This document shows positions 17,365-37,966 of a stretch of DNA of 44,795 nucleotides, piece after piece. Both the position numbers and the translations under genes were made by a program. The stretch comes from a virus. The stretch covers positions 1 to 44,795 of the IMG/VR virus record IMGVR_UViG_3300034196_000067; one strand, written 5' to 3'. Numbering within the stretch: the stretch's first letter is position 1; every line of letters begins with the position of its first letter. The notes below the pieces were generated by a model. The model worked only from the letters and a program-made list of their open reading frames with translations. It did not search any database and was not told the origin of the DNA.

Positions 17365-17366
17365 TC

Positions 17367-17643: not shown

Positions 17644-17646
17644 AGC

Positions 17647-17844
17647 TCAGAATCCAGTTCGGGTGACGAAGGCGGTGTTCTCTGTGCCCCCGCTGGGCCA
17701 CATTCCTTCAGGGGAGAACGCCCTGTCCCTAGGAGAGAGATCGTCCTTGGAAGGAGGAATCCCTCTCTTCTTCCCCTGCGTAGCCTGGGGACGGAGAGCT
17801 CCCATCTTGACGATGGCCAGCAACTCTTCAGCGAAGGAAGTCAT
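17647..17844 (-). CDS. Possible small protein (65 aa) with N-terminal FAEELLAI motif
   Basis: ATG overlaps the stop of 17841..18311 (ATGA coupling). MTSFAEELLAIVKMG loosely resembles the family motif. It would be the last gene of the long minus-strand unit. Speculative. Confidence 0.3.
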   Translation of the reverse strand: MTSFAEELLAIVKMGALRPQATQGKKRGIPPSKDDLSPRDRAFSPEGMWPSGGTENTAFVTRTGF

Positions 17845-18311
17845 TCTCCGCCGAGACTCTTGTGGAGAGCAGTGGCGGCTCTGATAGCCAAGTCAGACCA
17901 GAACTGCTTCCCACCGAAGCCTGCGACTTTGACGAAGTAGGCTCCCATGTCCCGATCATCCTCGACATCGAGCCCTTCGCCTCCAAAGACGTCCGTCATG
18001 GCCTTCTGGAGCTCATCCTTGAAGCCTTTGGGGAAGGCGGGGCGCGGTACGCCTGCGCTGTCTGCTGCATGAAGACCCCAGGGCCAGAAGTGGAAGATGA
18101 TGTCCCCACTCCGCTTCGCGAACTCCGCCTCGAAGTGTCCGGGGCTACGGATCTCCCGGAACTGAATGGGCTCTACTTGCTTGTTTCCGAAGGATGTCTC
18201 CTTGGTGATGACGGGAAACCCTTCGCCCTTCGCCTGGTCGAGAACGGAGATGCGCTCCGGAGAGAGTGCAAGCTGCTTCCTCGATTGAAGTTCCTGCTCA
18301 ACCCAGCTCAT
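17841..18311 (-). CDS. Hypothetical protein (156 aa)
   Basis: Minus-strand ORF coupled (ATGA) to the upstream 18308..19207. Confidence 0.45.
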   Translation of the reverse strand: MSWVEQELQSRKQLALSPERISVLDQAKGEGFPVITKETSFGNKQVEPIQFREIRSPGHFEAEFAKRSGDIIFHFWPWGLHAADSAGVPRPAFPKGFKDELQKAMTDVFGGEGLDVEDDRDMGAYFVKVAGFGGKQFWSDLAIRAATALHKSLGGE

Positions 18312-19207
18312 GAGAAACCCCCGTCATCCTTTGGGTGGTACCCCTTCTTGTCGACCTCGATGTACTTCTTTCCACGAACCTTCGCCTCGGCGTGGGTTGC
18401 TGCGTACCTCGGAGCGTCTTGGCTGGAAGGATGGCCTACCCACACGTCTTTCACTGGCCCCTTCCCTTTGAAACCGCCCTGGCTCTTGTAGAACTTCTCC
18501 ACTTCTTTCACGCGCTGCCGGGCCTGCATGTGAGGATGCTGAGACAGCTTCTTCCCTACCCCAGCCGCTGTAGCGAGCGCCAGTCCTCCGGCGACAATCT
18601 TCTTCCTGTGCTTGTGCCAGAGGGAGTCACTGGGACGCTCCCAGTCGTCGTTCTTTGCCGAGGTCTTCTCAACCGACTTGGTTTCGTAGATAGGTCTCTG
18701 GCGTTTCAGCTCGTCGGCTTTCTGCCAGACCTTCTGCTTCGTCGCCTTGGGCTGCTTCAAGACTTCGGCGGCGTCGTTGAACTTGTGATGACGCGCCGCT
18801 TCTTGAAGAGTCGAGGAGTCTCTCCCAACTCGGCGCATCATGTGGCCGCCCGAAGCTCCTACGAGCGCGCCGAACAACGCTCCCCGCTTGGCGCCCTTCT
18901 TCCGCTCATCAGGCTTGGCGGCCATGGCGCCTCCCACCGCTCCTGGGATGGCGCCTACGACCGCATGCGCCGACGTCGGCCCCACCCAGGCTGGGATCTT
19001 CGGCATCTTCACAGCGGACAGTTTCTTGAAGAACGTCCGTGTCTCCGCCCTGGCTTGCTTCTCGAACTGGATCTTCCCGAGCTCATCGAAGAAGCCATTC
19101 CACATGGCTTGCTTCTCCATCGTAGAGAGGTCTCTGGAATGGAAGGTTCCTCGGGCGATCGAGGCTTCCTTTGACTTCACCATCGCAAGGTAGGTTCGGG
19201 AGTTCAT
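18308..19207 (-). CDS. Basic Gly/Ala-rich protein of the FDEL-KI family (possible true start at 19120)
   Basis: Contains MEKQAMWNGFFDELGKIQFEK. Starting at this internal Met puts the motif at residues 10-17, as in the other family members. Gly/Ala-rich basic remainder. Confidence 0.5.
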   Translation of the reverse strand: MNSRTYLAMVKSKEASIARGTFHSRDLSTMEKQAMWNGFFDELGKIQFEKQARAETRTFFKKLSAVKMPKIPAWVGPTSAHAVVGAIPGAVGGAMAAKPDERKKGAKRGALFGALVGASGGHMMRRVGRDSSTLQEAARHHKFNDAAEVLKQPKATKQKVWQKADELKRQRPIYETKSVEKTSAKNDDWERPSDSLWHKHRKKIVAGGLALATAAGVGKKLSQHPHMQARQRVKEVEKFYKSQGGFKGKGPVKDVWVGHPSSQDAPRYAATHAEAKVRGKKYIEVDKKGYHPKDDGGFS

Positions 19208-19210
19208 AGA

Positions 19211-20074
19211 TCAGTTCTTGAGCCCGTCCTTCTCCTGCTCATCCTGCATGCCTCCGGAGAAGTTGCCGAGCGGAGCGAGAGTGTTGATGTCCGGTGGTGG
19301 CTTCTGCGGGTGTTCCATCCGGAAACGCTCGAAGTTCTTGAGCACGTCCTTGAGGGCCATGTCGCTGGTGGAGAGAGCCTCGTGACACTCGACGACGGCC
19401 TTCGCAAGCACGGCGATGGCCTTCACCTTGTCAGCGCCGGTACCAGGCTTGAGGTTCACTTCTTCTAGGGTGTAGTGAGCGATCTCCTGTGCGCGTTGGA
19501 TCATCACCTTAGACTCAACAGCTTGCGCGATGCGAAGGTGGTAGAGAGCAAGGCGGGCATCGCCTTGCAGAAGAGACATGTAACGCTCATAGAGCGCGGC
19601 TCGCCCGAAGAGGAAGCGTCCCCAGTCGTCGAAGGTGAGTAGCTGGGGATTCCAAAAGTAGTGGCGGAAGGTCTTCACGCCCTCTTCGGAAAGGAACCAG
19701 GTGTACTGCTTGTTGATGCGCTGGCAGGTCACCTTGATGTCGAGGCGGGAGAGGATCATCTGCTCTACCACCAGCCGTTGGTCAGGCATGGAGAGGATGT
19801 TCCACGCCTCCTGCATCTCAGGAGAGTTGCGGAAGATCTCGTAGATACCGAGGTTCCGCAAGTAACGCATCGACGGTCGATGCGTGGTGTCGAGGGGATC
19901 GAAGTCCTCTGGCGCCGGCGGAAGGCTCGCCTTCAAGAAGACGAAGTAGTTCTTCTCGTAGCTTGGAGGAAGAAGGCAGCCCCAGTCCTGGAGATGCTTC
20001 TCGATGGCCGCCTGATCCCAGTCAGGGTGCCGGATGATGAGGAACTTGATGAAGTACTCAGCAGGATGTCTCAC
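19211..20074 (-). CDS. Hypothetical protein (287 aa)
   Basis: Long minus-strand ORF. No recognisable motifs. Confidence 0.45.
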   Translation of the reverse strand: MRHPAEYFIKFLIIRHPDWDQAAIEKHLQDWGCLLPPSYEKNYFVFLKASLPPAPEDFDPLDTTHRPSMRYLRNLGIYEIFRNSPEMQEAWNILSMPDQRLVVEQMILSRLDIKVTCQRINKQYTWFLSEEGVKTFRHYFWNPQLLTFDDWGRFLFGRAALYERYMSLLQGDARLALYHLRIAQAVESKVMIQRAQEIAHYTLEEVNLKPGTGADKVKAIAVLAKAVVECHEALSTSDMALKDVLKNFERFRMEHPQKPPPDINTLAPLGNFSGGMQDEQEKDGLKN

Positions 20075-20076
20075 GA

Positions 20077-22584
20077 TCAGGCCTCAGCGTGCTGAACGGC
20101 GCGGAGGGATTGGATGACCTCTTCCATGTTCTTCATCGTCCTCTCCACTGCCTCTTCAGGCACCGCCCTCTCTCCGACGTATCCCGAGAGAAGCATCTCG
20201 GCGAGTTGCTCGCTTGTCTGCTCCAGGCTGGGAATGAAGTCGATGAAGGTCGAGAGGTTCTCGGGGTTGACGAAGTTCAGAGCGAGCACCTTGTCGACCG
20301 TTGATTCATCCTGAAGCGTCGCGGCCTCCTTGATGAGATCGCGACGAAGGTTCGGGATCAGCGAAGCGAAGGCGGATGCGGTCTTCTTCTTTTCTTCGTA
20401 GAGCTCCGCCAGTGTGGTGATGTCCTTCAGGTTGGAAAGCTTCACCACACCATTCCGACGAGCGACAGAGAGCTTCTCCTTGATGGAAGAGCCATCGACG
20501 CCGAGCAGACCGAGCATGAACTCCGCAGAGACGGGGTCGAGGTCGTAGCGGTACTTGGCCGCGATCTTCGCCAGCCCACAGCCTCCTTCGAGGTTGAACG
20601 AGCCGTTCCAGAAGAGGTCGACGGAGTGGGCCGCTGCCCGAGCCGCACTCGTCTTGTTCATCTCCTCCGCACTTCCGAGGAGCTGAGTCTGGCCATTCAA
20701 GGCCATGAACTTCCAGGAGGCCGGTACGGCGAATTCGCCATCAGCGATCTGTTGAGGCTGCACGAGCTCTGGGGAGAGATGCACCGTGACCTGATTCCCC
20801 ATGAAGTCGACGCAGGTGTACATTTCCCCGCCATCGGGACCTGTCATGCCTCCTCGCACTGTCACAGGAGCAGTCGCACGGGCACCATCTCTCGTGACTT
20901 CGTAGAAGACTCCCTCACCGCGAGGGGCGGAGACTGGGAGCGTCATGCTCTTGCCGACGAGTTCTCCGACAACGGCGTCCTGGACAGAGAAGGCTGAGCC
21001 GTTTGTGAAGAGAGCCACTGGCGTTTCAGAGAAGCTCCCATCCCAGGCCAGTGTGGTAGGGAAGACCCATCCCAGTATCTGGTTCCCCATCTTGTCCTGA
21101 ACCAGATACTCCCCGAACTCTTGAATGGCGTCAGCATTCGGCTCCTCGGGAGAGAGAACCTCTTCCGGGATCGGATCGGCCACTGCGGAGAGCGTCTGAC
21201 CAGGCTGCATCGCCTGCGCCTGATCGGGACCGATGGCCTCTGCCGCCTCTTCTTGAGGAACCACCTGCCCTTGTGCCTCCTGGCCTGGAGCGAAAGCGTT
21301 TACGTTGGCGCTCTTCACGAGGAAGTTGCCACCGGGAAGCTTCTGGAAGGTGATGACCGTCGGATCGATGCTCTCCGCGATGGCGAGCAACCGCTCCTCT
21401 ACTGAGGCCCTCTTCGTCTTGTCGAAAACTTCGACGAGGAGGTCGGTCACCCCTGCTCTCTGAAGCCCGGCGCGCAGCGTCGCATCAGAGGCCACCTTCT
21501 GCACGAAGGCTTCCGCATCCTTCTCGCGGATGGTCGGAGCGATGGCGCGAAGAAGGGAGACAGAGGCCTTCTTCTGCTGACCTCCGCCCAGCATCTTCGT
21601 CCCCTCCGACATCATCTTCTGGCCCTTATCGAACTGCTTCTGCTGCGTCTTCTGCTGCTTCTCGACGAGCTTTCTCTTGTACTCCTCGATCTTGCCAGGA
21701 GGCGGCGGCTCCGGCTTTGGGTGGTAGCCGTAGATCTTGGTGGCCATCTCGTAGACCCGGTTCTGAACTGCCGGGTGATCGCGGCCACCGTACTCCTGCA
21801 CCATCTTCTGGATGTCGAGAGAGTCGTAGATCGCGTTCCACTGCTCCTTGGAGATGTGCTTGAAGGAGACCTTCTCCTTGGTCGTCTTCTGGAGCGTCGC
21901 GAAAAGCTGCTCTTCTGGAGACGCGCTCGACAAGACCATCTTCGCAGCCGCGAGCCCTTGGGGGCCCTTATTGACCATCTTGAAGCCGATCGCCTTGGCC
22001 CGCGCCACTCGCGAGGGGTCTTTCGATCCCAGGTTCTTGATCGCGGTCTTGGCAGCGTAGGCGAAAGGCATCGACTCCTTCTGCACCGATGCGGTCTTGT
22101 AGTCGCCACCCATGCCGATGCCGGAACGGTGCGGCGGCATGAGAGGCTCGACCAAGGACGGATCCTGGGGCGGCGAGACAGAGAGGTCGAAGGTGCTGGG
22201 GTTGAAGAGCTGCTCCCTCACCCGCTCTTCGTTGAGCGGAAGGACTCGCTCGCCGTCGAGGAAGGTGCTGAAGGGACGGACCGACCGCTCCTGCACCACA
22301 AGGGGGACCCGAATGTGAGGCAGCCCGGCCTCGTCATGCTCAGCGTCGGGGCGCTCCGTCTTGTTGTGGATGTCGGCGTACCCGAAGGCGTAGCCGCGTT
22401 CCGGGTCGACTCGATCCAAGTTGACGTTGACGTCGTAGTCGGAGAGGTAGGGAAGCTGCTTGTAGAGATCGCTCGTCAGCTCCTGTGGCCAGTTCTCCGG
22501 CTTCTCCGAGAGACGGCCGGCGTATGCAGACGTCTTCTGAAGCTGGTCCTGCTTTGGGAGGTTGTCCTTGTAGAGGGAGCGCAT
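20077..22584 (-). CDS. Large virion-type protein (835 aa), function unknown
   Basis: Long ORF tightly packed between neighbours. Mixed Q/K-rich and beta-rich regions. Confidence 0.5.
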   Translation of the reverse strand: MRSLYKDNLPKQDQLQKTSAYAGRLSEKPENWPQELTSDLYKQLPYLSDYDVNVNLDRVDPERGYAFGYADIHNKTERPDAEHDEAGLPHIRVPLVVQERSVRPFSTFLDGERVLPLNEERVREQLFNPSTFDLSVSPPQDPSLVEPLMPPHRSGIGMGGDYKTASVQKESMPFAYAAKTAIKNLGSKDPSRVARAKAIGFKMVNKGPQGLAAAKMVLSSASPEEQLFATLQKTTKEKVSFKHISKEQWNAIYDSLDIQKMVQEYGGRDHPAVQNRVYEMATKIYGYHPKPEPPPPGKIEEYKRKLVEKQQKTQQKQFDKGQKMMSEGTKMLGGGQQKKASVSLLRAIAPTIREKDAEAFVQKVASDATLRAGLQRAGVTDLLVEVFDKTKRASVEERLLAIAESIDPTVITFQKLPGGNFLVKSANVNAFAPGQEAQGQVVPQEEAAEAIGPDQAQAMQPGQTLSAVADPIPEEVLSPEEPNADAIQEFGEYLVQDKMGNQILGWVFPTTLAWDGSFSETPVALFTNGSAFSVQDAVVGELVGKSMTLPVSAPRGEGVFYEVTRDGARATAPVTVRGGMTGPDGGEMYTCVDFMGNQVTVHLSPELVQPQQIADGEFAVPASWKFMALNGQTQLLGSAEEMNKTSAARAAAHSVDLFWNGSFNLEGGCGLAKIAAKYRYDLDPVSAEFMLGLLGVDGSSIKEKLSVARRNGVVKLSNLKDITTLAELYEEKKKTASAFASLIPNLRRDLIKEAATLQDESTVDKVLALNFVNPENLSTFIDFIPSLEQTSEQLAEMLLSGYVGERAVPEEAVERTMKNMEEVIQSLRAVQHAEA

Positions 22585-22593
22585 CTTCTTCTC

Positions 22594-23667
22594 CTACGAT
22601 CCGAAGAGAGTCGTCGACACCGGAAGGTTGTTGGAAGGCGGAGCCGGGGGTCCGGTCGGTGATCCAGGCCCGATGACTGGGTGTACGTGCGTGAGCAACC
22701 AAGTAAGGAAGGCAGGATCCGCCAGAAGAACAGGGAACGTCCCCTCCCCTACCACAAGCATAGGGCCAGCAGTCACCTGGCCTCCTGCGAGGAGGGAAAG
22801 GGTCGTTCCTGCTTTGACGCTCGCCGCTGCATCTGCCTGGACGTCAACTGTCCTTCCTTGAATGCTGGCTGCGAGAGAAGAGGAGACTGAAACATTCCCT
22901 TGAGCCGCGAGAGAGAAGTTCCCTCTCACGCTCCAGTCTACATTCCCTTCGCAAGACCAGGATACCGAGCCATCCTTCTGAAACTCCAAGCTGATCTTCG
23001 TCGCCGCCCCTGTCTTCCCCGAGGCGTTGATGACGAGAGACAGGATATTCTGGGAGCTGTCTGAGTGGGAACCGATTTCAAGAACTGCGACGTAGTCAGG
23101 GTCGTCTGCAAACTGCTTCGCGCGCAGTTTCAGCGTTGCTGGGCGAGCTCCGTCCGTCGTGTTCTCAGAGCGCTGAATGCTCCAATCCAAATCCCCACCC
23201 AACGTATTCAGAGTGTAGTTCTCGCAGAAGTCTCTGATGGCATTGTTGATTGGGATGAACATCCTCTGAGAAAGAGGACCTCCTCCGATCTGCACGACCC
23301 CACCCCGGCGCAAGATGAGGAAGTTCTCATCTCTCGTCCCTAGGTAGATGTCTCCTGGATTGAGACCCATCTTCTTGGAGCGCAGAGAGTCGTTCTCGTC
23401 TCGGGCAGGAGCCCAAGCCAAGACGAACGGCTTGGAGCCGTCAGAGGGGAAGCAGATCCAACACAGACTCCCTACCTCCGGCATGAAGTAGATGCCTTCG
23501 CCGTTTGCGTGGTGCTGGTAGGGTGTCGCGAACCCAAGGCCGGACAGTGGTTTCTTGGTGAACTGCGTGACAGCGGAGACCGAGTAGGCCTCGACATCGA
23601 CGTCGATGATCTGACCAGACTCGACGTAGGCCGGAACGGTTCGGATCTGAGAGGCGGCTATGGCCAT
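22594..23667 (-). CDS. Hypothetical structural protein (357 aa)
   Basis: ATG immediately follows the RNAP stop (TAAATG). Ser/Gly/Val-rich beta-like composition. Confidence 0.5.
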   Translation of the reverse strand: MAIAASQIRTVPAYVESGQIIDVDVEAYSVSAVTQFTKKPLSGLGFATPYQHHANGEGIYFMPEVGSLCWICFPSDGSKPFVLAWAPARDENDSLRSKKMGLNPGDIYLGTRDENFLILRRGGVVQIGGGPLSQRMFIPINNAIRDFCENYTLNTLGGDLDWSIQRSENTTDGARPATLKLRAKQFADDPDYVAVLEIGSHSDSSQNILSLVINASGKTGAATKISLEFQKDGSVSWSCEGNVDWSVRGNFSLAAQGNVSVSSSLAASIQGRTVDVQADAAASVKAGTTLSLLAGGQVTAGPMLVVGEGTFPVLLADPAFLTWLLTHVHPVIGPGSPTGPPAPPSNNLPVSTTLFGS

Positions 23668-26600
23668 TTAGTAGGCGAACGGCTTCTTGCGAGTGACTTC
23701 CTTCGGAGGAGCCCCGAACTCCTTGCCGTAGGCGATTCCAGGAATGGGGTGAGCGCCGTGGATGTCGCTCTTCCACGCCTGACTGGCCCCTCGCTGAAGG
23801 GTCTGCTTGAGGCGCTGGTAGTTGAGGCGAGCCATCCAGTCGGTAGACTGGTTGGGGATGTTTCCAGAGCCAGGAAGCATGGGCTCGTGTGTGATTGGCT
23901 GCTCGTGCGTCTTGCCTTTGTTGTTGCGGTTGAACTCCTCCACCAAGGAGTGCGGAACTACGTCTCCTGGATCCCACTGAGAGCTGCCAGGGTCCTTGAT
24001 CCGAGTGTAGTTGGTGAGGCTTCGAACCACGAGCTCGATGTTACGTGGCCGGACGTTTTCGTCCTTGTAGAGCTTCCTGTAGAGCTCGTCGACCAGGTGG
24101 CGCTGCACCCCATGCATGTCCTTGGTGATGTGGAGGAGCTCCTTCGGGTGAATCGGAGCCATCTCATGAGACAAGCTCTCGCCTCGACGCACCTCCGCTC
24201 CAACCACAAGAGCAGGGTTGATTTCTCCTTCTCGAATGTGGTGGTCGATCCCGTTGATGGTAACGACGTGGCCACCAAGACCGGGGTCTGGCTTGATGCC
24301 TGTGACGGTTCCTGTGGTCTTGGCAAGAATGGCTGACCCCTTCAAGATCTTCGGCATCTTGAGTAGGTCCTTCAGTCGTTGAATCCTGGAGACGGAACCA
24401 CCTCCACGGCCCGACGCGATACCTCCGGTGTGGAAGGCATCCATGGCGAGCTGAGTCGCGGGCTCGCCCAAAGCTTGTCCAGCGAGGACGCCGATGTTGG
24501 TCCCCACCGGATGGAGCTTCCCATTCTCATTGAGGCCGAAACACTTAGAGCAGACACCTTCTCCGTGCTGGCACTTGAGAGGGGAGCGGACTTGGATCTT
24601 GGCGTCCTTCCCAAGAACCTGACGCAGGCGATCTACGAGAGCAGGAGTGACCTGTTCCCCCGCCTTGAAAGGCCCGTGGTCCTTGGCCAAGAACCGATCG
24701 TAGACGTCGAGATGGTAGGGATCCTTGGGGTCGAGAGGCATCAGGATGCCGTGCTGCGTTCCACAGTCCTCGCTCGTGATGAGCGTCGAGATTGTGGAGT
24801 TGATGATGTCCTTCGTCATCGCGCCAGGCTCTCTCGTACCGCTGGCGCGCTGGAGAGTTCCCTTGCGGGCGCCGTGCTGGGCGAGCCAGTAGTCTCCGAC
24901 GTCGAGCCCCTCTCCGTAGGACCTGGTGATGGGGAAGGGAACCACGCGGCCCGTAGAATCCTGCACAAGCATCGGGGCTGCGATCATCTGTCGAAGCTGC
25001 TCTGGTTTTCCACGCGCACCGGAGTAGACCATGGCGCCGAGGTGGCTACCTTCTTTTGGCAGCCGCACTCTCGCTGCGGCGTCGAGCTTCTCCGTTGCCT
25101 TGGAGAAGATCTCCACCAGCTTCGCCTCCCTCTCCCATGAATGAAGAGACGGGTCGATCTTTGCTGCTTGATGCTGCGCCTCCGCTACGATCTGGTCGCG
25201 CTCAGGCAGAGGAGCAAAGTCCTTCAGACTGAGAGAGAACCCGTGCTTGAAGGACTGCTCAGTACCCAGATCCTTCAGGTTGTTCACCACCTTGTCGAAC
25301 TCTCCAGGATGCTTCTTGGCGAGCTCGGTGACAATGGAGCCCATTGGCTTCTTGGAGATCTCGAACTCGGGGTCGTAAAGCACTTGCCCCCGCATCGCGA
25401 AATCCCGAGGAAGGCGGGATTCGATCCGTAGACGGCCAAGCGTAGTAGGCCGGTTCCCGACTTGTTCGACTCGGACTACATCTGTGTGAGTCAGGAGTCC
25501 TTTGTCGACCAGGTCTGAGAGCTCATCGACGGTCTTCACGGTCTTGCCGGAATCCTTACCCCATTTGGAGATGAGGTGAAGGCCGAGCAGGAACTCCTGG
25601 GAAGGGATGTGCATCGCGCCGTAGGTCGTGGGAGAGAAGAGGTTCCGTGAAGGGAACATCTTCTTCGCCTCTTCCACCGCTTCTTGGGAAATAGGGACGG
25701 TGCCCGCCATCGTATCGCCGTCGAAGTCGGCGTTGAAGCCGCCACAGACCAGCGGGTGGATCTTGATGGCCTTGCCTTCCACCGTCTTGGGGCGGAACGC
25801 TTGAACCGAGAACTTGTGCAGAGCCGGATCTCTTTTGAGAAGAAGGGGTCGATCCTTCATCACCTCGTCGAGAGCCTTCTTGGCATGATCCGACTGTGCC
25901 TTCATCTCGGACATAGCTTGAGAAGGCGTGTATCCGTAGCGCGAGTGCATATGCGCCACGACGAAGGGCTTGTAGAGCTCCATCGCGGCCACACGGGGAA
26001 GCCCGATCTCGTCGATGTGAAGGGAAGGTTCAGGGACGATGGTGGACCGAATTGACAGGTCCTGCTTCCGCTTGACGAGCTTCTCTTGGAAGTACCCCTC
26101 CTTCGGCTGATCTCCACCGATGAGGTCCACAATACCCTTCAGCTCTCGGTTGTCGAAGCTCTCCTTGTCGTAGATGGGTGTGTAGTCTCCGACAGCCTGT
26201 AGAGCCTTCATGCTGTTCCAGAGCTCGCCGCGGAGCTCGTGGACCATCTCATGCCCATACTTCTCCGCAGGCATGACCTTCATCTTCTCATTCACAAGAC
26301 CCACGGTCTTGTAGAGGTCGTTGAGAGAGCTCTTCGCCACATCACCGCGTGCCGTGGGAGTCACTGGACGGAAAGCAGCCGGCAGGACCGGGATGTTTTG
26401 AAGCACGTAGGCCTCGTGCGGCTTCATGTCGAGGTCCTTCAGTGCCAGAAGGTACTTGAGCGTGCGGTTGCTCTGGTCGCGCTTCGAGCCTCTCTTCGTA
26501 GGAAGCTCCTCCCGCAGCTTCTTGATCTCCTCTTCGACGTTGACGCTCTTCAGAGCGTCTGCGATGGCTCGACCCCCCACCTTCCCGTCGAGGGTGCTCT

Positions 26601-29979: not shown

Positions 29980-30186
29980 GGGTGCTCCAGTTGCACCTCG
30001 CGCTGGGTGCTATATCTGTCAGCCCTCTCTCTGCGCGTCTAGAGGTCTTCGGGCCGTATCGACTCGATGCGAGGATACAAGCACGGCCCACAGCATGGCA
30101 ACGAAAAGGCTCGAAGATCCAAGGCATAAGAAGTTGCAGGAGAACTGGTAGGCATCTCTTGCTTTTACTCCGACCAGAGAGTGGTG
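29980..30186. promoter_or_regulatory. ~200-bp divergent regulatory region between the RNAP operon and the plus-strand regulatory island
   Basis: Non-coding gap flanked by divergent starts. Contains a TTGCAC...TATATC sigma70-like pair on the plus strand with a short 14-15 nt spacer (weak). Confidence 0.3.
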
Positions 30187-30302
30187 ATGAGCACCAAGCC
30201 TAACTCTACCGAGTTCGAAGAAGAAGTCCTGAGCTCGCTGTATGGAGACGAAGAGGGCAGCGATGACGTAGACGAAGGGACCGACGAGAGGGAGGAAGAG
30301 GT

Positions 30303-30413
30303 ATGGCAGGAATCTTCATAGGAGCGTTCGTGGTTGGAATGCTCAGCTACTTCGTGATGCGGTTCACGCAGGCTTTGCAGGAAGTCCAAGTGCAGCAGGG
30401 ATGGGGCTACTGA
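30303..30413 (+). CDS. Possible small single-TM peptide (36 aa)
   Basis: ATG preceded by GGGAGGAAGAGG SD. MAGIFIGAFVVGMLSYFVMRF hydrophobic helix. Followed closely by the next gene's SD/start. Confidence 0.3.
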   Translation: MAGIFIGAFVVGMLSYFVMRFTQALQEVQVQQGWGY

Positions 30414-30420
30414 GGGCACC

Positions 30421-30834
30421 ATGGATCGTCCGCCATTTTGCAAGATCCTCTTCGGGAAGAATGGAGGGAAGTTCACGGCGACAGGCTTGCCGGACTTCAA
30501 CCGAGAGGACGAGGACGATTGGGTCCGTGGGTGCTGTACCCGAGCCTTCGACTGCGGAAGTTGTCTCTTCCTCCAGGAGTGGCTCGCAGCTCTTCAGGCG
30601 CAAGGATGGGAGTTCGGTTGGGAGTGTGATCAGTGTCTAAGAGAGACCCTCCCCCTCGATCGGCAGAACGGAGTGACCCGGTCTGTGCAGGGCTTTTATC
30701 AAGCCGGGCGACGTGCAGGTCTCACTCCCGACGATCCTGATTACGATCCAGACATGCCAGGGCTCGAAGGTTGTACACGCAACTGTGGATGGGAGAGCAG
30801 TCTTCTACAACTCGTACTGAGGAAACGGCCATGA
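30421..30834 (+). CDS. Cys-rich protein (137 aa), probable zinc-binding
   Basis: GAGGG SD upstream. Contains CC...C..C and C..C..C...C clusters. Stop overlaps the next start (ATGA). Confidence 0.4.
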   Translation: MDRPPFCKILFGKNGGKFTATGLPDFNREDEDDWVRGCCTRAFDCGSCLFLQEWLAALQAQGWEFGWECDQCLRETLPLDRQNGVTRSVQGFYQAGRRAGLTPDDPDYDPDMPGLEGCTRNCGWESSLLQLVLRKRP

Positions 30835-31070
30835 GTGAAGCGGTTCTCGCAAGGAGCACGCAGTCGACTACGAAGAAGGTTGCTTGGTCCGAAGCCATGA
30901 AGATGGTGCAGGCCAAGATCAAGGACACGACGCAGCAGAAGGTGCTTCAAGCGATGCTCTCGGGGACGTACCCCTCTGGCGACATCGCTCGGAAGCTGGG
31001 CATCCCTTGCCGCGAGGTGGAGCGCATCAAGGACGCCATCTGGAAGATGATCGACGAGCTGGTGGGCTAG
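30831..31070 (+). CDS. Sigma-70 region-4/GerE-like HTH protein (79 aa), candidate transcription factor for the phage RNAP
   Basis: PSGDIARKLGIPCREVERIKDAIWKMI aligns with the sigma region 4.2 consensus [27 protein letters not shown]. Located immediately divergent from the RNAP gene. Confidence 0.45.
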   Translation: MSEAVLARSTQSTTKKVAWSEAMKMVQAKIKDTTQQKVLQAMLSGTYPSGDIARKLGIPCREVERIKDAIWKMIDELVG

Positions 31071-31286
31071 GTGTCTTGCGCCCTTTGCGGAGGGCCGATC
31101 CTCAAGGGGCAGTGGTGGGCGCGCACTCAGGCCTTCGTCAACATCATCGACGCGCATGGGCAGGCAGTATCCGTCCCTGTTGTCTTGGAGGACGGAGCTT
31201 CTAACAAAGAGGCTCACTACGGCTGTCTTCTCAAACGCTGCCCAGAACTGATCGGTGTGAAATGGGGTGAGCCGAGAGAACCATGA
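31071..31286 (+). CDS. Small Cys-containing protein (71 aa)
   Basis: GTG start directly after the upstream stop. CALCGG...C motif. Overlaps the next start (ATGA). Confidence 0.3.
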   Translation: MSCALCGGPILKGQWWARTQAFVNIIDAHGQAVSVPVVLEDGASNKEAHYGCLLKRCPELIGVKWGEPREP

Positions 31287-31867
31287 CCAACTTCTACAAT
31301 CCAACACCTCAACAAGGAACCCCATCTCTCGGGCCCTACACCGAGCAACAAGCTCCGTTCCTTGAATGCTCGAACTGCGGTACTCCGATCACGGTGGGGC
31401 AGCGCTACACCATGGTATGCGAGTACCTGCTAGGAGTGGACCTAGCCACAGGGCAGCTTGTTCCAGTGGCTTGTGTCGACTTCGAGGAAAGTGTAGCGGT
31501 CCACTCCGCGTGCTCCGCAGAGTACGCCCACGATCAGATCACCAAAGAGCCCTGCGGAAAGGACGAGGAAGATGCGCAGAGTGATTGTCCCTTCTGCGGA
31601 GCGGAGGGATGCACCCATTGTAGGGAACGTCTTCGAGAAGTTGATGCGTCCTTGCTCAAGGAACCAGTGACTCGTTCAGACATCCTCGACCAAGAGGATA
31701 TGATCGAGAACGCCGTAGGGGTTCAGAAGTTCCTCTTCGACCGGGTTCGGAACGGGCAGCCGGACACGGCTGTAACGAACGAGCTCTGGTACATCCATGA
31801 GCTTCTCAATCAAGCAGCCGAGAGGCTGTCGAACCTTCGAGCCGCAGGAGTGTTTCCAGACACGTAG
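31283..31867 (+). CDS. Zinc-finger-rich protein (194 aa)
   Basis: CSNCGT...C..C, CPFCGAEGCTHC cysteine clusters. Last gene before the terminator. Confidence 0.45.
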   Translation: MTNFYNPTPQQGTPSLGPYTEQQAPFLECSNCGTPITVGQRYTMVCEYLLGVDLATGQLVPVACVDFEESVAVHSACSAEYAHDQITKEPCGKDEEDAQSDCPFCGAEGCTHCRERLREVDASLLKEPVTRSDILDQEDMIENAVGVQKFLFDRVRNGQPDTAVTNELWYIHELLNQAAERLSNLRAAGVFPDT

Positions 31868-31878
31868 ATGTGGCGAGG

Positions 31879-31909
31879 AGAAGCCGACGAAGTTCGTCGG
31901 CTTCTTTTT
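31879..31909 (+). terminator. Rho-independent terminator at the convergent junction with the portal gene
   Basis: AGAAGCCGACGAA/TTCGTCGGCTTCT inverted repeat followed by TTTTTA. Confidence 0.55.
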
Positions 31910-31916
31910 AGCCTGT

Positions 31917-34022
31917 CTAGACGCCCGTCGAGGATGCCCGGCGAGTTGGGCGCTGCGTCGGTTGCGGAGTCTTGGCGTCGAGAGGGCTGGGTCCTCTGTT
32001 CTGGTTGATGATTTGGAGTACCAAATTCCCGAGCTGCGGATTCGACATCCGCACCTTGTTGATCTCCATCATCATCGCGCTCTCGCCTTGCTCGTCTCCG
32101 ACCTTCTTGATCTGGTTCGCTGCTCTCTTTGCCAGATAGAGAAGGTTGTAGCCGCCACCCTTCTGACCAAGCTGGAGCGGGCTGGACGCGGAGACAGGAA
32201 CCCCATCCGTCGGCGCTTGCTGCGCGTTGTCTGGAGAGACCGTCGACCCTTCTGGCATTCCTGGAGCGGCTTGGGGACCTGGGACCATCTCCCCTTCCTG
32301 CCCAGACTGCTGACCTCCCATGCCCGGCATCCCAGGCATGCCTCCAGCCTGGGATGGGTCTTGTCCCTCTCCCTGCGCGCCTGCCGGGCCGCCGGCACCT
32401 GCCTGAGCGTCGGCACCCGCTCCAGCGCCTGCCCCTTGCTGGCCACCCGCTCCCCCCGTCGCCTCCATGAGCTCCTGCTGCGCCTTTGCCTGATACCGGG
32501 TCTGGACCATCATCATCTCGCCCTGGATACCGGCTTGGGCGAGCTGCTGCTTCCGCATGACGTCGAGTTTGTGGTCCAGCTCCAGAGCCTTCCGCTCTTC
32601 CTCCACGGCGATGTCCTGGTCGACCTCGGATAGAAGCGTCTGGTCTGAGAGCTTGTCCGCCTGGTTGAGGGTGAACATGAAGTTGGAGCGCTGGAGATCG
32701 TCAGCCATCTTGAAGCGCTTCATGTGAGCCCGGACAATGGGCCACTGCATGAAGTTGGCGATTCGACGGATGACGAAGTTGTTGAGCATGTTCTCGTGGT
32801 CCTGACGGTACCCGATGAACATGTTCTCCAGCATTCGCATCGAAACGTTCGACCCCGAGTAGGTGAGGCCGCCGTAGACGAACTCTTGAGGAACGCCCAT
32901 GCCGGCCACGATCTGTTTCGACCAGACGTCCATCTCTTGGTAGAGACCGAGGGCCTTCCCGTCCCCTCCAATGGACTCGTTCCCGATCGGCACAGGAAGG
33001 ATGGGGAGGTAGTTGTTGTCGTACTTCCACTTGGCGATCTCTGCCTCGATACGCTGGCGCCAAGAGTTCAGGTCGAGAGTGGTGTACGGATCGCTGGTGT
33101 TTGAGCCTGCCTGGGGGAAGAGGATGCGCAGCGGGACGATGTGCTCCTGAGCGATCGACTCCTGAGCCTTGCGAAGGATCTGGAGGTAGAAGGTGTCCTT
33201 CAGGACCGGCAGGATGAGAGGCATGCCCCAGCCGTTGTCCTTCTGGGAGATGATGGGGCGCTTGAAGACGAAGATGTTGTCGTCGGTGAAGCGGATGTAC
33301 TTGTTGCGCCGCAGAGCCTCGACGAAGATGTCAGGGACGGTGTCGAGAACGTTCTTCTTCCCCAGGATAAGATCGTTCTTGAGCTGAAGGGGGAGTTCGA
33401 AGGTGTAGATGGGGTCTGCGCCACCGAAGCCCGGGTCGATGTTGATGTACTCCGGATTCCACCGCATCAGGCGGATGCGCCGCAAATCTCGGTCGTACCA
33501 GTCCAAGACAGCAGCAGGACCCTCCCTCCCGCACTTGTCACAAGAGATGATGTACTCCAAGTTACGCCACTTGTAGTGGATCTTGGAGGCCTTCTCCTTA
33601 TGCTTGCAGCTCTTGCAGATGAGGTACTTGGTGAAGGGGAAGTGGATGGTGACGGCGCAAATGCCGTAGGTGTAGTAGTCGAGCCCAACCTCGATCTGGA
33701 ATGCTCGGTACCGAAGATGCTGACCAAGCAGGATCTCCCACTTCTCACGGATCCGCTGATCCTTCTCGTCGATGACGATCTCGGTGACGGGGTACTCACT
33801 CATCTTGTGGATGACCACGTTGATGAGTGGGTTGACGAGATAGTAGTAGCGGCACCACCTGAGCAGCGCCTTCATCGAAGGCGGCAGATATGTGTGCGCG
33901 ATGTCGAAGAAGGGAGACGGGTAGCGAACACCACTGCGGTTCGTTCCGTCAGCGGTACGTCCGCGCTGTCCCGAGAACCGGGAAGCGCCTCCGTAACCGA
34001 GGGACAGGTTGTCGTAGCTCAT
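31917..34022 (-). CDS. Portal-like protein (701 aa) with Gln/Gly/Ala-rich C-terminal extension
   Basis: Size and general portal-like sequence character (e.g. VPLRILFPQAG, GMGVPQEFVYGG). Long helical low-complexity C-terminal 'barrel-like' tail. Sits amid internal-protein-like genes. Not confirmed by a diagnostic motif. Confidence 0.5.
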   Translation of the reverse strand: MSYDNLSLGYGGASRFSGQRGRTADGTNRSGVRYPSPFFDIAHTYLPPSMKALLRWCRYYYLVNPLINVVIHKMSEYPVTEIVIDEKDQRIREKWEILLGQHLRYRAFQIEVGLDYYTYGICAVTIHFPFTKYLICKSCKHKEKASKIHYKWRNLEYIISCDKCGREGPAAVLDWYDRDLRRIRLMRWNPEYINIDPGFGGADPIYTFELPLQLKNDLILGKKNVLDTVPDIFVEALRRNKYIRFTDDNIFVFKRPIISQKDNGWGMPLILPVLKDTFYLQILRKAQESIAQEHIVPLRILFPQAGSNTSDPYTTLDLNSWRQRIEAEIAKWKYDNNYLPILPVPIGNESIGGDGKALGLYQEMDVWSKQIVAGMGVPQEFVYGGLTYSGSNVSMRMLENMFIGYRQDHENMLNNFVIRRIANFMQWPIVRAHMKRFKMADDLQRSNFMFTLNQADKLSDQTLLSEVDQDIAVEEERKALELDHKLDVMRKQQLAQAGIQGEMMMVQTRYQAKAQQELMEATGGAGGQQGAGAGAGADAQAGAGGPAGAQGEGQDPSQAGGMPGMPGMGGQQSGQEGEMVPGPQAAPGMPEGSTVSPDNAQQAPTDGVPVSASSPLQLGQKGGGYNLLYLAKRAANQIKKVGDEQGESAMMMEINKVRMSNPQLGNLVLQIINQNRGPSPLDAKTPQPTQRPTRRASSTGV

Positions 34023-34028
34023 TGTGTG

Positions 34029-34760
34029 TTACCTCTGGCCCTGGAGCGGAACAGCAGGAATCGTTTTACGTCCCCTCATGCGATCTGCTGCTGCTCCGGC
34101 AAGGTCCCCGAGCTTCCCTCCGATCAGAGAAGCTGAGACACCTCCGGCGAAGCCGAACGGGGCTCCGATGATGCCACCAGCCTGATCCCCTACAAGCTTG
34201 GCCGCTCTGCGAAGTCGGCTATGCCCTTGCCCCGAAGGATCTTGGCTCTTCATCACATCACGAGCCCCGGTCGCTAGACCGTAGCCCATAAGTGCTTTCC
34301 ACCCAAAACCCAGAGGCTTCCCTCCTGGACGGAAAGTGGCCTGCATCCCTTGCTGGAAGCTCTTTTGAGGGGTAAGGAAAGCGGCGGCGGCTTGTCCCAT
34401 CTGACCAGCAGCGGTGGCTCCATAACTGGCAGCCCCTTGAGCTCCTCGCTGGGCCACGTTGCCGATGTAGCCGCCTACATCGCGCAAAAAAGAGATCTTC
34501 TTCAGGCCTTCCCGCGCCTTCTTCTTGTTGGCCTTCCCCCAAGACCGAAGCTCCAATCTCTTCGAAAGCTTTGGAGTGACGCTCTTCGCAGCCTTGCGCC
34601 CTACAGCATGTGCGTTGACACGGTTGTGCAGGTACGTCTGCGCGTCCCGGGACAGGTTCGTCCCTCGTATCTGAAGCATCTTCTTGGAGATGCCGGAAAT
34701 CTTCTCTAGCTCATCAAGGAACGCAGGGAGGGAGTCTCTGATCACGTGGCCCCCAGCCAA
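34029..34760 (-). CDS. Basic Gly/Ala-rich protein of the FDEL-KI family (243 aa)
   Basis: N-terminal SLPAFLDELEKISG. Gly/Ala-rich basic remainder. Immediately upstream of the portal gene. Confidence 0.5.
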   Translation of the reverse strand: MAGGHVIRDSLPAFLDELEKISGISKKMLQIRGTNLSRDAQTYLHNRVNAHAVGRKAAKSVTPKLSKRLELRSWGKANKKKAREGLKKISFLRDVGGYIGNVAQRGAQGAASYGATAAGQMGQAAAAFLTPQKSFQQGMQATFRPGGKPLGFGWKALMGYGLATGARDVMKSQDPSGQGHSRLRRAAKLVGDQAGGIIGAPFGFAGGVSASLIGGKLGDLAGAAADRMRGRKTIPAVPLQGQR

Positions 34761-35680
34761 CTCTTCAGAGTCGTGAGCTGTTCGGCAAGCTGCTTGCGGC
34801 GAATGTTCATGTAGTCGCGCGCCAGAAGTAGCTTGGAGACCTGCATGTCTTCCATACTCTCTTCGTCGGGATGGAACTCGACGAAGGGGAGCTTCTCTAC
34901 TTCCTTCCAGCGCTTGACGATGGGAGTCGGGTCGAACTTGACGATGAGATCGAGGTTCTTCCCCTTACCAGCATTCACCAGCTCTTGTCTTGGCTGAAGA
35001 GAGAGGCCTTGCAACGGATGTAGGCGATCCGTGCAGTTCGAGCAGAATCCGTCATGGAAGAGAGCAGACTCTTCGTTGCCACAATCCTGGCAGCGGTAGT
35101 GGGGCTGGGAGAGTTCGAGCTGCATGAAGTCCAGAGGAGGCGGCACGTAAAAGACGTTCTCTTCCAGCACAGTTGCTGCCATGTAGAGACGAACCTCGTC
35201 GCTGAACTTCTCACGACGAAGGAAGTCTAGGGCATCGACTGCCCCGTACAGCTCTTCCAGAGAGAGCATCTGCATGATGCGGAAGTTCGGAAGATGGTTG
35301 CCGTTCAAGGCATGCGCCACCTTCTCGAAGATCTGCCAGCGGGTCCATGGACCGGTGGAGGAGTGCAGAGCTTGGAGTGCGCGGATCTTCTGCCAACAGA
35401 TCTCCGAGACGCCGGTAGAGAACTCTTGAGAGATCTCTTCGCGAACCGTCTCAGGCTCCCACCGATACCAGTCAGACCCGAAGGCTCGTAGGAGAGAGAA
35501 GTCGAGGACGACGGGGTGGGTGTTGGGACGGATGAACAGGTTCCGAAGCGTGACCGGTTGAGAATAGTCTTGAGTCGGAGCCACGACGCGCTCCTCCGGA
35601 CTACCCTCGGTCGGAGCGGTCGGCTTGACCTCGTCCAAGGAACGAAGCTTCTCGAAAAGGGTGTCTTCAGGAGTCGGCAT
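34742..35680 (-). CDS. Hypothetical protein with zinc-ribbon (312 aa)
   Basis: YRCQDCGN...FCSNC. Start overlaps the stop of 35680..36207. Confidence 0.45.
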   Translation of the reverse strand: MPTPEDTLFEKLRSLDEVKPTAPTEGSPEERVVAPTQDYSQPVTLRNLFIRPNTHPVVLDFSLLRAFGSDWYRWEPETVREEISQEFSTGVSEICWQKIRALQALHSSTGPWTRWQIFEKVAHALNGNHLPNFRIMQMLSLEELYGAVDALDFLRREKFSDEVRLYMAATVLEENVFYVPPPLDFMQLELSQPHYRCQDCGNEESALFHDGFCSNCTDRLHPLQGLSLQPRQELVNAGKGKNLDLIVKFDPTPIVKRWKEVEKLPFVEFHPDEESMEDMQVSKLLLARDYMNIRRKQLAEQLTTLKSWLGAT

Positions 35681-36207
35681 CAGCGCTCGATGATGAAGGG
35701 CTCCGTTGCCTTCGGCAGCTCGATCGACCTCTTGGGCACTGTGTTCGACTTCGGAGTGAAGGAAGAGAGCATCGCGGCCCGTTGCGGATCTTGGTGAAGA
35801 CGGACAGGCGGGTGCGGTAGAACCTTCTTCTGAGCAGCTTGGAAGGCGTGCCCCAGAGCGTCAGCCTTCATGCTCCCGACCGCCGCCCTCCCTGCCCGCG
35901 CTACTCCGCTAGGCCCGAAAGGCAGCCCCGCCTTCTTCATCTTCTTGAAGGCAGAGTGCGCAAGGTGGGCAGCCGAGGGAACGCCGAGAACACCAAGGCC
36001 TGCCAGTTCGTACTTCGCGTGCCTCTTCTCTTCGTCCGAGGCCGGGTTGTTCTTGCGGAGCTTGGCGGCGCTTGGAACGGCGAGAACGCCGAGGCCCCCA
36101 AGCTCCGCGCCGTGAGCTAGATGACCTCCGTGCTGAGCAAGGAAGCCGGAGAGGCCGGCGATCTTCTGGAACTCGTCGGCGAAGGCGTGAACGGTGGTCA
36201 AGTGCAT
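35680..36207 (-). CDS. Basic Gly/Ala-rich protein of the FDEL-KI family with internal tandem repeat (175 aa)
   Basis: N-terminal VHAFADEFQKIAGL. Repeated ELxGLGVLxVPSAAxL units are mirrored at DNA level by ggaacgccgagaacaccaaggcc / ggaacggcgagaacgccgaggcc. Confidence 0.5.
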   Translation of the reverse strand: MHLTTVHAFADEFQKIAGLSGFLAQHGGHLAHGAELGGLGVLAVPSAAKLRKNNPASDEEKRHAKYELAGLGVLGVPSAAHLAHSAFKKMKKAGLPFGPSGVARAGRAAVGSMKADALGHAFQAAQKKVLPHPPVRLHQDPQRAAMLSSFTPKSNTVPKRSIELPKATEPFIIER

Positions 36208-36215
36208 GACGTCTC

Positions 36216-36560
36216 CTACTCTACGCTGGTAATGGCTCTCCCGTACCCTCTTCCTGCTGCTGCCACGCGATCCGCGTCGGCCGCGGCCTTGGCGCCCGAC
36301 GGCTTGCGCATATTCGCCTGTAGTTTCGCGAGCATGGACGACTCTGGCGACAGCTTCTTGACTGGAGGGGACGGACGCGAGGCGCGCGATGCAGAGAGAA
36401 GGGAAGAAGACTTCCGGGGAGGGATGACGATCCCCTTGGCCGCGCGGAGGTTCTGGTGCTCCGTTACGAGCTGCTTCGCGATGGGACTTTTGAGGAGAGC
36501 GCCCGTGAAGGCGATCTTCTGGAGTTCATCGAAGAAGCCGCTGAGGGTCTGGGAGTTCAT
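36216..36560 (-). CDS. Basic Ala-rich protein of the FDEL-KI family (114 aa)
   Basis: N-terminal LSGFFDELQKIAFTG. Start overlaps the stop of 36557..37966 (ATGA). Confidence 0.5.
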   Translation of the reverse strand: MNSQTLSGFFDELQKIAFTGALLKSPIAKQLVTEHQNLRAAKGIVIPPRKSSSLLSASRASRPSPPVKKLSPESSMLAKLQANMRKPSGAKAAADADRVAAAGRGYGRAITSVE

Positions 36561-37966
36561 GAATTCTTCGCCATCCTCGCGATCACCTGTTTCGTGTCGG
36601 CTGGCATGGAATTGAAAATGGTGACGGGGTCGATGGAGAAGGCTTCCGCGAAGTCCGGCTGGAAGTTCCTCTCGATCTCTTCCCGAGGAATGGTATGGAG
36701 CTGCCGATAGGTGACGGAAGTGCCGTCTGGAAGCTCAAAGCACGGAGTGTCGCTTGACGCCGCCGTCTTCTCCGACTCTTCGTTCTTGCCGAAAGTGGCG
36801 AAGTAGGGGTCGCACACAACACCACCCCACTCGTAATTGAGCCCACAGAGCTCATCCGCCTCGCGCAGAAGCTGGGCGAACGTCTCTGGCTCCATCATGG
36901 CTCTCTTCTCTTGGAGGTCGTCCCAGACGGCCTTGAAATCAGGAGCCATGGTTCGACGATTGGCGAGATGGGCCTCGACATCAGGTGCGTACTCGGTAGA
37001 GCCGTACCGAGCCATCGTGTCTGGGACGGTGACGCCGAGAGCGTCTGCTCTCACGCTGGCCGTCTTGGCGAACTCGTGGCGATCTTGAGGAGGCAGAGTA
37101 GGCCAGTTCTCTTCGAAGAACTGAATCGCCCTCTGCACGTCGGAGTAGCTGTCGAGGGCGTATTGGCCGTTCAGAGCGGTATACGAGGCCTTCTTGACCT
37201 TCACCACTGGTCGAGCATACTCGGTGGCGACGTCGACCTGGTTGGCGACCTTTTTGAAGGGTTTCACTTTTTCAGGAGGAATGGCTCGGCTGTCGTCCGT
37301 GAGGATGACGCCTCCGTCTGGAGGCTTGGCTCCAGCGGTCTTCATCTGGTTGGCCGTTGGGATGACGCGGCCAGAGTCCGCTCCTCCTCGGACCGAGATC
37401 AGGTTTGTTCGCTGCGCCCAGTCTGCTTCGTCGCCGACGAACGGCTGGTTGCGGGAGTCCCTTGTCCTGGACAAGGCGCCTGCACCTTTCGAGGAGGCAG
37501 CGGAGACCTTCGAGTGCTGCATGATGTCAGAGAGTCGGTTCAGGACCCTCCCACCCTTGGACTGTTCGCGACGAACGTAGCCTTTGGAAGCGGTCTGGGG
37601 CTCAGGGGCGAACGCCTGCTTCAGCTTCTCTGGGACAGGAAGCCCGAACTCTTCGTTGAAGGCAGCGAGGTTCTGCGCGGCGACCTTCACAGCAGAAGCG
37701 GGGAGCTGATCCATGGTCTCCAGAAAGTACAGTGTCGAGAGGACGGTGTTTCCTGCATCGACACAGGCGAACTTCCGAAGGTGTTGATCGTCGCTGTGAA
37801 GAACGAGTGCGAAGGCTTCGTCTCTCAGGACATCTCGCTCTTCCGGAGAAAGAAGATGCGCCTCGGAGACCGCTTCAGGGAGGTTCTCGGGATCCGGACA
37901 AGCGGTCTTGAGAATCTCTCCTGTTCTGTCGTCGTAGAAGTCGAGAACCAGGCCTGCGATCTTCAT
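36557..37966 (-). CDS. Hypothetical protein (469 aa), first gene of this minus-strand unit
   Basis: Long ORF diverging from the replication operon. No recognisable motifs. Confidence 0.5.
   Translation of the reverse strand: MKIAGLVLDFYDDRTGEILKTACPDPENLPEAVSEAHLLSPEERDVLRDEAFALVLHSDDQHLRKFACVDAGNTVLSTLYFLETMDQLPASAVKVAAQNLAAFNEEFGLPVPEKLKQAFAPEPQTASKGYVRREQSKGGRVLNRLSDIMQHSKVSAASSKGAGALSRTRDSRNQPFVGDEADWAQRTNLISVRGGADSGRVIPTANQMKTAGAKPPDGGVILTDDSRAIPPEKVKPFKKVANQVDVATEYARPVVKVKKASYTALNGQYALDSYSDVQRAIQFFEENWPTLPPQDRHEFAKTASVRADALGVTVPDTMARYGSTEYAPDVEAHLANRRTMAPDFKAVWDDLQEKRAMMEPETFAQLLREADELCGLNYEWGGVVCDPYFATFGKNEESEKTAASSDTPCFELPDGTSVTYRQLHTIPREEIERNFQPDFAEAFSIDPVTIFNSMPADTKQVIARMAKNS

Follow-up and report, generated by a model that had tools for sequence, protein, structure and literature searches.

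The window analysed here is a stretch of 44,795 nt (positions 1 to 44,795 of the IMG/VR virus record IMGVR_UViG_3300034196_000067, source contig 209,442 bp), and it holds one uninterrupted open reading frame (ORF) on the minus strand encoding an RNA polymerase (RNAP) whose beta and beta' subunits form a single chain. A previous reading of these letters alone (the sequence-only reading) had proposed that this enzyme is assembled into particles and injected to transcribe early genes. The genome could be read for about 10 kb further on each side of the window (about 65 kb in all). Left of the window end are further structural genes, including one for a 1105-aa protein with a faint tail-sheath match; the tail-sheath-like and other structural genes outside the window therefore indicate a large contractile-tailed phage. 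The phage, of about 209 kb, belongs to an uncultured clade with two sets of distant cultured kin, Salmonella phage Arash and the Vibrio phages D69, D148 and D181. The RNAP is the first gene of a six-gene minus-strand operon, to which a seventh small ORF may be added:

23668-29979, minus strand: fused beta-beta' RNAP, 2103 aa, one ORF (beta about residues 1-1025, beta' about 1030-2103)
22594-23667, minus strand: 357-aa gpV/gp5/VgrG-like tail central spike (PF04717 in homologues)
20077-22584, minus strand: 835-aa conserved protein (157 database relatives; AlphaFold2 (AF2) mean confidence, pLDDT, 75.7)
19211-20074, minus strand: 287-aa all-alpha conserved protein (170 database relatives; AF2 pLDDT 80.8)
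18308-19207, minus strand: 299-aa motif-family member with a glycine-zipper segment (motif WNGFFDELGKIQ; PF05433 E 1.7e-5)
17841-18311, minus strand: 156-aa protein, last operon gene (conserved in 15 loci)
17647-17844, minus strand: 65-aa ORF that may follow the 156-aa gene
17609-17641: terminal hairpin, perfect 14 bp (fold -31.2 kcal/mol, z = -5.0), at the point where the RNAP operon and the RNase HII unit converge

The 357-aa gene begins immediately after the stop codon of the RNAP, and the later junctions are gaps of 2-9 nt or overlaps of 4 nt. With the single ORF and the terminal hairpin, this tight packing bears out the description of the fused RNAP as the first gene of a minus-strand unit of about 12 kb.

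Both halves of the RNAP are recognised by cellular profiles. In Pfam searches the Rpb2 domains span residues 353-929 (Rpb2_6 at 575-929, E 1.3e-63) and Rpb1_1/2/3/4/5 lie at 1177-1880 of the same chain (Rpb1_2 E 6e-27, Rpb1_5 E 3e-18), and the beta' part matches solved bacterial beta' subunits in PDB with an E value of 3e-111. The lysine motif of the beta barrel, GDKLSGRHGNKG (GDK..GNKG, residues 792-803), and the Mg-binding NADFDGD of beta' (1416-1422) are intact. There is no cysteine between residues 729 and 1412, and comparison with Escherichia coli shows that residues about 1030-1100 (window about 26680-26890) lack the four cysteines of the zinc finger at the beta' N-terminus; the second beta' zinc site is apparently kept (C1739, C1803, C1810 and C1813). 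The linker at the beta-to-beta' junction is almost nil, and the beta C-terminal helix (FEGLLRGLGVDV, 1010-1021) leads directly into a recognisable beta' N-terminus. With E. coli again as the guide, the chain begins at the canonical beta start and ends at the canonical beta' terminus. To judge from these features, the protein is a complete bacterial-type beta-beta' core with intact catalytic motifs and without the beta' N-terminal zinc finger. Over the full length, phage homologues score 773 bits versus 524 bits for bacterial rpoBC, with identities of 29-32% to the best cultured-phage matches and about 29% to bacterial matches.

The gene directly behind the RNAP encodes a tail spike protein. 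PF04717 is found in 36 of 41 of its homologues (best E 1.4e-7), with DUF2345, Gp5_C and GpV Apex in some, and the family profile matches the VgrG beta-helix in PDB with an E value of 0.0024. Two histidines near the C-terminus, H327 and H329, are invariant (window about 22680-22690), forming an H-x-H that recalls the metal-binding apex of P2 gpV-type spikes. The GpV Apex motif of Pfam is matched by one spike homologue. For the 835-aa protein there was no match in Pfam or PHROG, and its AF2 model had no annotated match in PDB or BFVD; its C-terminus resembles the Arash virion protein Gp218 weakly (hhalign E 0.0085 but a probability of 4.7%). The 287-aa protein matched no family, and a Foldseek search of PDB with its AF2 model found nothing below E 0.5. 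That it could be a sigma-like factor is unsupported, there being no sigma factor among those PDB matches. The 835-aa and 287-aa models match nothing annotated, and therefore the sequence-only description of the unit as one of large structural-type proteins holds for the spike only, the one neighbour in the operon with a demonstrated structural role.

The motif-family member that had been noticed inside the unit is indeed there, as the 299-aa protein, which is also weakly similar to the Arash virion protein Gp213 (E 0.028). Clade members share its motif, [SA]-F-x-D-E-L-E-K-I-[AS], which always occurs on the structural strand (for example at 3435, 5258 and 21355 in related locus L005). The proteins that bear it are small, Gly/Ala-rich and glycine-zipper-like, are encoded on either side of the portal or within the RNAP operon, and usually have it close to the N-terminus; it may direct the targeting or processing of internal or ejection proteins.

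The wider setting of the RNAP consists of long minus-strand units, broken by short plus-strand islands:

from 38112, plus strand: replication module (superfamily 2 (SF2) helicase, uracil-DNA glycosylase-family protein, DnaB)
37966 to 31917, minus strand: Unit A, the portal operon (469 aa, three small motif proteins, 312-aa Cys-rich protein, portal)
34029-37966, minus strand: genes that precede the portal in its operon (motif proteins of 243, 175 and 114 aa; 312-aa Cys-rich protein; 469-aa protein)
31917-34022, minus strand: portal, 701 aa (PHROG portal families, E 3e-8 and 8e-8; 30% identical to Arash portal Gp204)
30181-31867, plus strand: opposite-strand island (46 aa, about 36-aa transmembrane, 137-aa Cys-rich, about 80-aa helix-turn-helix (HTH), 71 aa, 194-aa Zn-ribbon-like)
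29979 to about 17650, minus strand: Unit B, the RNAP operon (RNAP and five or six more genes)
about 15758 downward, minus strand: Unit C, from the large terminase (TerL) through the major head protein and beyond
13956-15842 (longest ORF), minus strand: TerL (PHROG 675 E 9e-62, PF05876 E 1e-11)
4510-5691, minus strand: major head protein (PHROG 2522 E 1e-6; G+C at third codon positions (GC3) 0.90; 28% identical to the Arash major capsid protein (MCP), Gp226)
12695-13826, 15777-17606 and 30181-31867, plus strand: islands of small genes
36216-36560, 35680-36207, 34029-34760, 18308-19207, 7742-8200 and 2365-2847, minus strand: motif-family genes

As the sequence-only reading had stated, the RNAP is thus sited with virion genes and not with the replication module, which lies on the plus strand; that reading was equally correct in placing the terminase and capsid genes farther down the strand of the RNAP. 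It had put the portal and three motif proteins on the other side of the RNAP, and these do lie upstream on the same strand, but some six small genes on the opposite strand, an island of 1.7 kb (30181-31867), stand between the portal and the RNAP.

A scan of IMG/VR, in which the window proteins were mapped onto the contigs recovered, gave 19 loci (designated by L numbers) on contigs of up to 198 kb, with RNAPs 33-70% identical to that of the window. The fusion is found in these relatives also, where tblastn returns single segments of about 2100 aa. The start codon is GTG after GGAG in the window and in its closest relative, L001, and TTG after AGGAG in L008. In essentially every locus that is long enough the order is the same: opposite-strand helicase, 469 aa, motif proteins, 312 aa, portal, a variable island, RNAP, 357 aa, 835 aa, 287 aa, 156 aa, opposite-strand RNase HII and TerL. 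Because this order is conserved in at least 16 metagenomic relatives (RNAP 41-70% identical), the arrangement of the RNAP locus is, on comparative grounds, not a matter of chance. In the most distant locus, L019 (RNAP 33%), the portal still directly precedes the RNAP, and in the cultured phages Arash and Vibrio D69 the order is portal, a small ORF, then RNAP (about 30% identity). Arash and Vibrio phages D69, D148 and D181 are also homologous to the window in MCP, portal and the 575-aa/Gp222 protein. Synteny in related contigs had been named as a check on the packaging proposal, and it supports the placement in the loci counted above as well as in Arash and D69.

Comparison of promoter motifs, the other check that could be made here, gave two promoter-like classes that are segregated by strand, with the RNAP sharing class I with the structural operons. 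The sites, together with a hairpin in the RNAP leader, are:

38010-38042, minus strand: class I promoter-like site of the portal operon (TCGTTGCCA-N17-TACACT; conserved in L001, L004, L009 and L016)
30072-30104, minus strand: class I promoter-like site of the RNAP operon (TCGTTGCCA-N18-(TG)TATCCT), about 125 nt upstream of the RNAP start
4411-4439 and 12672-12701, minus strand: other class I-like sites (TTGMCN-N16-18-TAyhCT)
38071-38081, plus strand: class II site GACATAAGAAG, about 40 nt before the first replication-module gene
30123-30133, plus strand: class II site GGCATAAGAAG, preceding the island 30181-31867
13393-13403 and 16109-16119, plus strand: class II sites
30016-30061, minus strand: two-helix leader hairpin, between the class I site and the RNAP start codon (L009 copy at 9881-9925)

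A relaxed class I pattern has five matches in the window, all on the structural strand, versus 0.49 expected. Four of the five stand ahead of structural units, namely the operons of the portal and of the RNAP, the unit that runs towards the MCP and the one that follows the MCP terminator. At the orthologous position before the RNAP, TCGTTGMC-N17/18-TAyhCT occurs in L007, L008, L013, L014, L016 and L018, and the same layout lies upstream of the 469-aa/portal operon in relatives of the window. A sigma-70 consensus scan of 15000-34900 found four sites versus 3.2 expected; such a scan of a single sequence is uninformative, and with this chance-level result the promoter is credible through conservation across loci only. 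Class II, GGNATAAGAAG, which can be written G[GAT]NATAAGAAG, lies 15-55 nt before the start codon of all four plus-strand units; its core pattern was found three times versus 0.24 expected, and the motif is almost perfectly strand-specific in relatives. In divergent regions the two classes stand back to back, the class I -35 element TTCGTTGMC reading as GKCAACGAA about 25 nt upstream of class II. With class I before the RNAP and the structural units, and class II before the plus-strand units, the RNAP is by putative promoter type grouped with particle genes and not with replication genes.

The leader hairpin shows compensatory changes in seven of its 11 pairs, and 85.8% of cells are paired as against 36-52% when the partners are slid. 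With a covariance model each locus yields a single copy, which in every case lies ahead of the RNAP, including in one locus outside the training set, and there is no match in Rfam. Folded as a single sequence the leader is unremarkable (z = -0.4), the hairpin resting on covariation only. The hairpin could serve as an operator through which the RNAP operon regulates itself.

Evidence on particles comes from relatives. In mass spectrometry coupled to liquid chromatography (LC-MS) of purified Arash particles, the RNAP (Gp206) gave 128 unique peptides and 3516 spectra, the highest of all proteins, and the C-terminal part of beta' (Gp216) gave 40 and 1210, compared with 32 and 877 for the portal and 30 and 1333 for the MCP; the primase, ligase and two helicases gave two unique peptides each, and the sigma factor Gp10 was also detected (PMC10585845). 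Calculated per residue from these data, the spectra are 2.3 for Gp206, 2.0 for Gp216, 2.4 for the adjacent helicase Gp217, 1.9 for Gp218 and 1.5 for the portal. The near-equal values of Gp206, Gp216, Gp217 and Gp218 suggest a defined component, perhaps a co-packaged complex. In the more distant phage YerA41, RNAP subunits are associated with the particle, as is a sigma factor (PMC7354516). A literature search on packaging in the clade of the window phage itself returned nothing.

Co-transcription with the spike, the structural promoter class, the portal-side position kept down to 30% identity and the Arash proteome all point to packaging, and on balance we lean towards a packaged and injected RNAP in this phage. 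The RNAP operon would be transcribed from a class I promoter of the kind shared with the portal operon and two other structural operons, through the leader hairpin, and one transcript would cover the RNAP, the tail central spike and four further conserved proteins, so that the enzyme would be made together with particle proteins. Some copies would be assembled into the particle and delivered to the cell along with the DNA. The injected RNAP, probably with a phage sigma-like factor, would then start at the class II sites before the replication and other opposite-strand genes, and newly made RNAP may carry on later. The proposal of the sequence-only reading is thus partly supported: the placement holds good, and deep synteny, the shared promoter type and virion detection of the homologue in Arash strengthen it; packaging in this phage, ejection, the firing order of the promoter classes and the pairing of polymerase with class are what we infer.

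Several points weigh against a packaged enzyme. A folded protein of 235 kDa must unfold to pass the tail tube. Both ends of the RNAP are canonical, and therefore there is no extra N- or C-terminal domain suited to packaging such as those of the N4 virion RNAP (vRNAP); nor does the RNAP carry the FxDELxKIA motif of the putative internal proteins. Family and fold searches could demonstrate no structural role for the 835-aa and 287-aa neighbours. Class I looks like an ordinary sigma-70 promoter, from which host RNAP could make the enzyme early, and the Arash RNAP is only about 32% identical to that of the window. In YerA41 the RNAP genes are expressed early (PMC7354516), and the virion preparations of Arash and YerA41 both held many non-structural enzymes (PMC10585845, PMC7354516). 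The Arash preparation yielded 116 of 272 proteins, ribonucleotide reductases among them, and its authors weigh carry-over of abundant proteins as well as injection for early transcription (PMC10585845).

Much of this would suit a non-virion transcriptase, made by host RNAP after infection and then reading middle and late genes, as in T7 logic or the role of the phiKZ non-virion RNAP, with the portal adjacency being inherited gene order. The canonical -35/-10 layout of class I, the lack of both a packaging or ejection domain and the shared motif, the early transcripts of the YerA41 RNAP genes (PMC7354516), the many replication enzymes in the Arash and YerA41 virion proteomes and the two operon partners with no demonstrable structural role all agree with it. 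However, early expression of the RNAP by the host would also switch on particle genes, because the portal operon and two other structural units are under promoters of that type. Gapless co-transcription with the tail spike, the 128 unique peptides of the Arash RNAP versus 2-3 for evident carry-over enzymes, and a portal adjacency that survives to 30% identity are further difficulties, and we rate this explanation as a serious one that is nonetheless unlikely. A third account is that an enzyme abundant late in infection is trapped in or sticks to particles without function, early transcription being host-dependent. This was raised by the Arash authors and agrees with the 116 proteins in their preparation (PMC10585845), but the spectra per residue of the four Arash proteins (2.3, 2.0, 2.4 and 1.9) are mutually similar and above the 1.5 of the portal, and we think it improbable. 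Finally, the proximity of the beta' part to bacterial beta' (E 3e-111) might suggest cellular contamination or a recent capture of host rpoBC with no phage role. This has next to nothing in its favour otherwise: the gene is a single ORF between a phage portal and a phage spike in a 209-kb phage genome, phage homologues outscore bacterial rpoBC (773 versus 524 bits), and the same neighbours are conserved across many phage contigs, a synteny that effectively refutes it.

A much fuller version of the packaging model can be drawn, which we regard as speculative and, as a whole, rather unlikely. The phage would represent a clade of about 200-kb myoviruses that are fully independent of host RNAP and use a single near-bacterial enzyme. 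The RNAP would be packed near the portal, would pass down the contractile tail as an unfolded chain that follows the spike and the glycine-zipper FxDELxKIA proteins, and would refold without alpha subunits. It would read class II sites first and the -35/-10 promoters later by sigma-like switching, its synthesis would be tuned by the leader hairpin, and the fusion would be an adaptation for delivering a stoichiometric core. If packaging is true, the injected-polymerase strategy also arose with a conventional RNAP, and the persistence of the gene beside the portal over deep divergence would be explained. It would also provide a minimal bacterial-type core, lacking alpha and the zinc finger, for structural and mechanistic work. 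As Arash is cultured, the packaging idea is directly testable, and the promoter classes and leader hairpin offer handles for transcription mapping.

The nearest known system is that of Arash and Vibrio phages D69, D148 and D181, likewise myoviruses (about 180-190 kb), in which the head module encodes, directly downstream of the portal, a bacterial-type RNAP whose beta is likewise joined to beta', and in which particle association has already been reported. There the enzyme is divided into beta with the N-terminal half of beta' (1525 aa) and a separate beta' piece of 606 aa with genes between, whereas here it is one chain of 2103 aa; the full fusion is a variant of that split arrangement. A spike gene follows the RNAP in the window, unlike in the Arash/Vibrio group. 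Arash has annotated sigma factors, whereas none was found in the approximately 65 kb of genome around the window, and homologues of the Arash sigma factor Gp196 and helicase Gp217 were not found in the window. With tblastn only one RNAP was matched in Arash (Gp206 and Gp216), and one place in Vibrio D181. What is new in detail here is the full fusion, the presence of a spike gene in the operon, the pair of motif classes and the leader hairpin specific to the RNAP.

In the mReC group of metagenomic tailed phages (multimeric-RNAP-encoding Caudovirales; Weinheimer and Aylward 2020), beta and beta' are detectable with cellular profiles (PMC7481178), as they are here. The MCPs of that group match PF07068 (PMC7481178), whereas the MCP of the window has no Pfam match, only PHROG 2522 (E 1e-6), and TerL here matches the mReC type, PF03237, at E 0.0019 only, versus 1e-11 for PF05876. 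Neither fusion nor virion association nor gene context is taken up by the authors who defined mReC (PMC7481178). The virion RNAPs of phiKZ and AR9 are two-barrel cellular-type enzymes in particles of large myoviruses, used for early genes (PMC7598289, PMC7824862). They are highly diverged, consist of four or five polypeptides and are accompanied by a second, non-virion set, whereas the window RNAP is one chain and near bacterial. A split enzyme of the phiKZ type is ruled out by the single fused ORF, and the relatives Arash and D181 show one RNAP. The crAss-like gp66 and the RNAP of P23-45 fused to the tape measure protein are virion RNAPs with a single-polypeptide two-barrel architecture, in which the window RNAP resembles them; these enzymes are undetected by cellular RNAP profiles (PMC7481178), in contrast to Pfam E values down to 1e-63 for the window RNAP.

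The sequence-only reading had likened the locus to N4 and crAss-like phages, which is apt as an analogy of strategy: in N4 a very large polymerase gene lies in the late block, its product is packaged and ejected, and phage-specific early promoters are found with sigma-70-type late promoters. The likeness does not extend to the enzymes, N4 being unrelated and the crAss enzyme far, or to the virion, this phage being contractile-tailed and not a podovirus. N4 gp50, from a podovirus, is a T7-like single-subunit polymerase with a length of about 3500 aa and dedicated domains at both termini. A vRNAP of that fold was ruled out here, all matches being to Rpb1/Rpb2 families and bacterial beta', with no homology to N4. 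To our knowledge, the virion RNAPs of N4, phiKZ-like, crAss-like and P23-45 phages are all unrelated to or very far from the cellular enzyme.

Among the remaining features, the G+C content of the window is about 58%, and a tRNA search of the 44,795 nt found no tRNA genes. About 30 neighbouring proteins were scanned against Pfam and PHROG, mostly without a match. The replication module runs past the window with DnaG, PolA and a RecA-like protein. In the island next to the RNAP, the 137-aa Cys-rich gene (30421-30834, plus strand) is divergent from the RNAP in 16 related loci, a conserved pair, and its product has no family match; the adjoining HTH protein of about 80 aa (30831-31070, plus strand) has weak CII/HTH matches. 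The RNase HII gene (PF01351, E 8e-28) is within the island 15777-17606, as is a 111-aa plus-strand gene (15777-16112) that is present in 13 loci and overlaps the N-terminal extension of the longest TerL ORF. Because of this overlap with a conserved opposite-strand gene, the true TerL start is probably Met29, at 15758, in which case TerL and the 111-aa gene would diverge from about 18 nt apart. Straight after the capsid gene (4134-4509, minus strand) are a hairpin with a T-rich tail, a class I-like site and a 77-aa ORF, whose GC3 of 0.91 is the top value in the window and which possibly encodes a very highly expressed decoration or tail protein.

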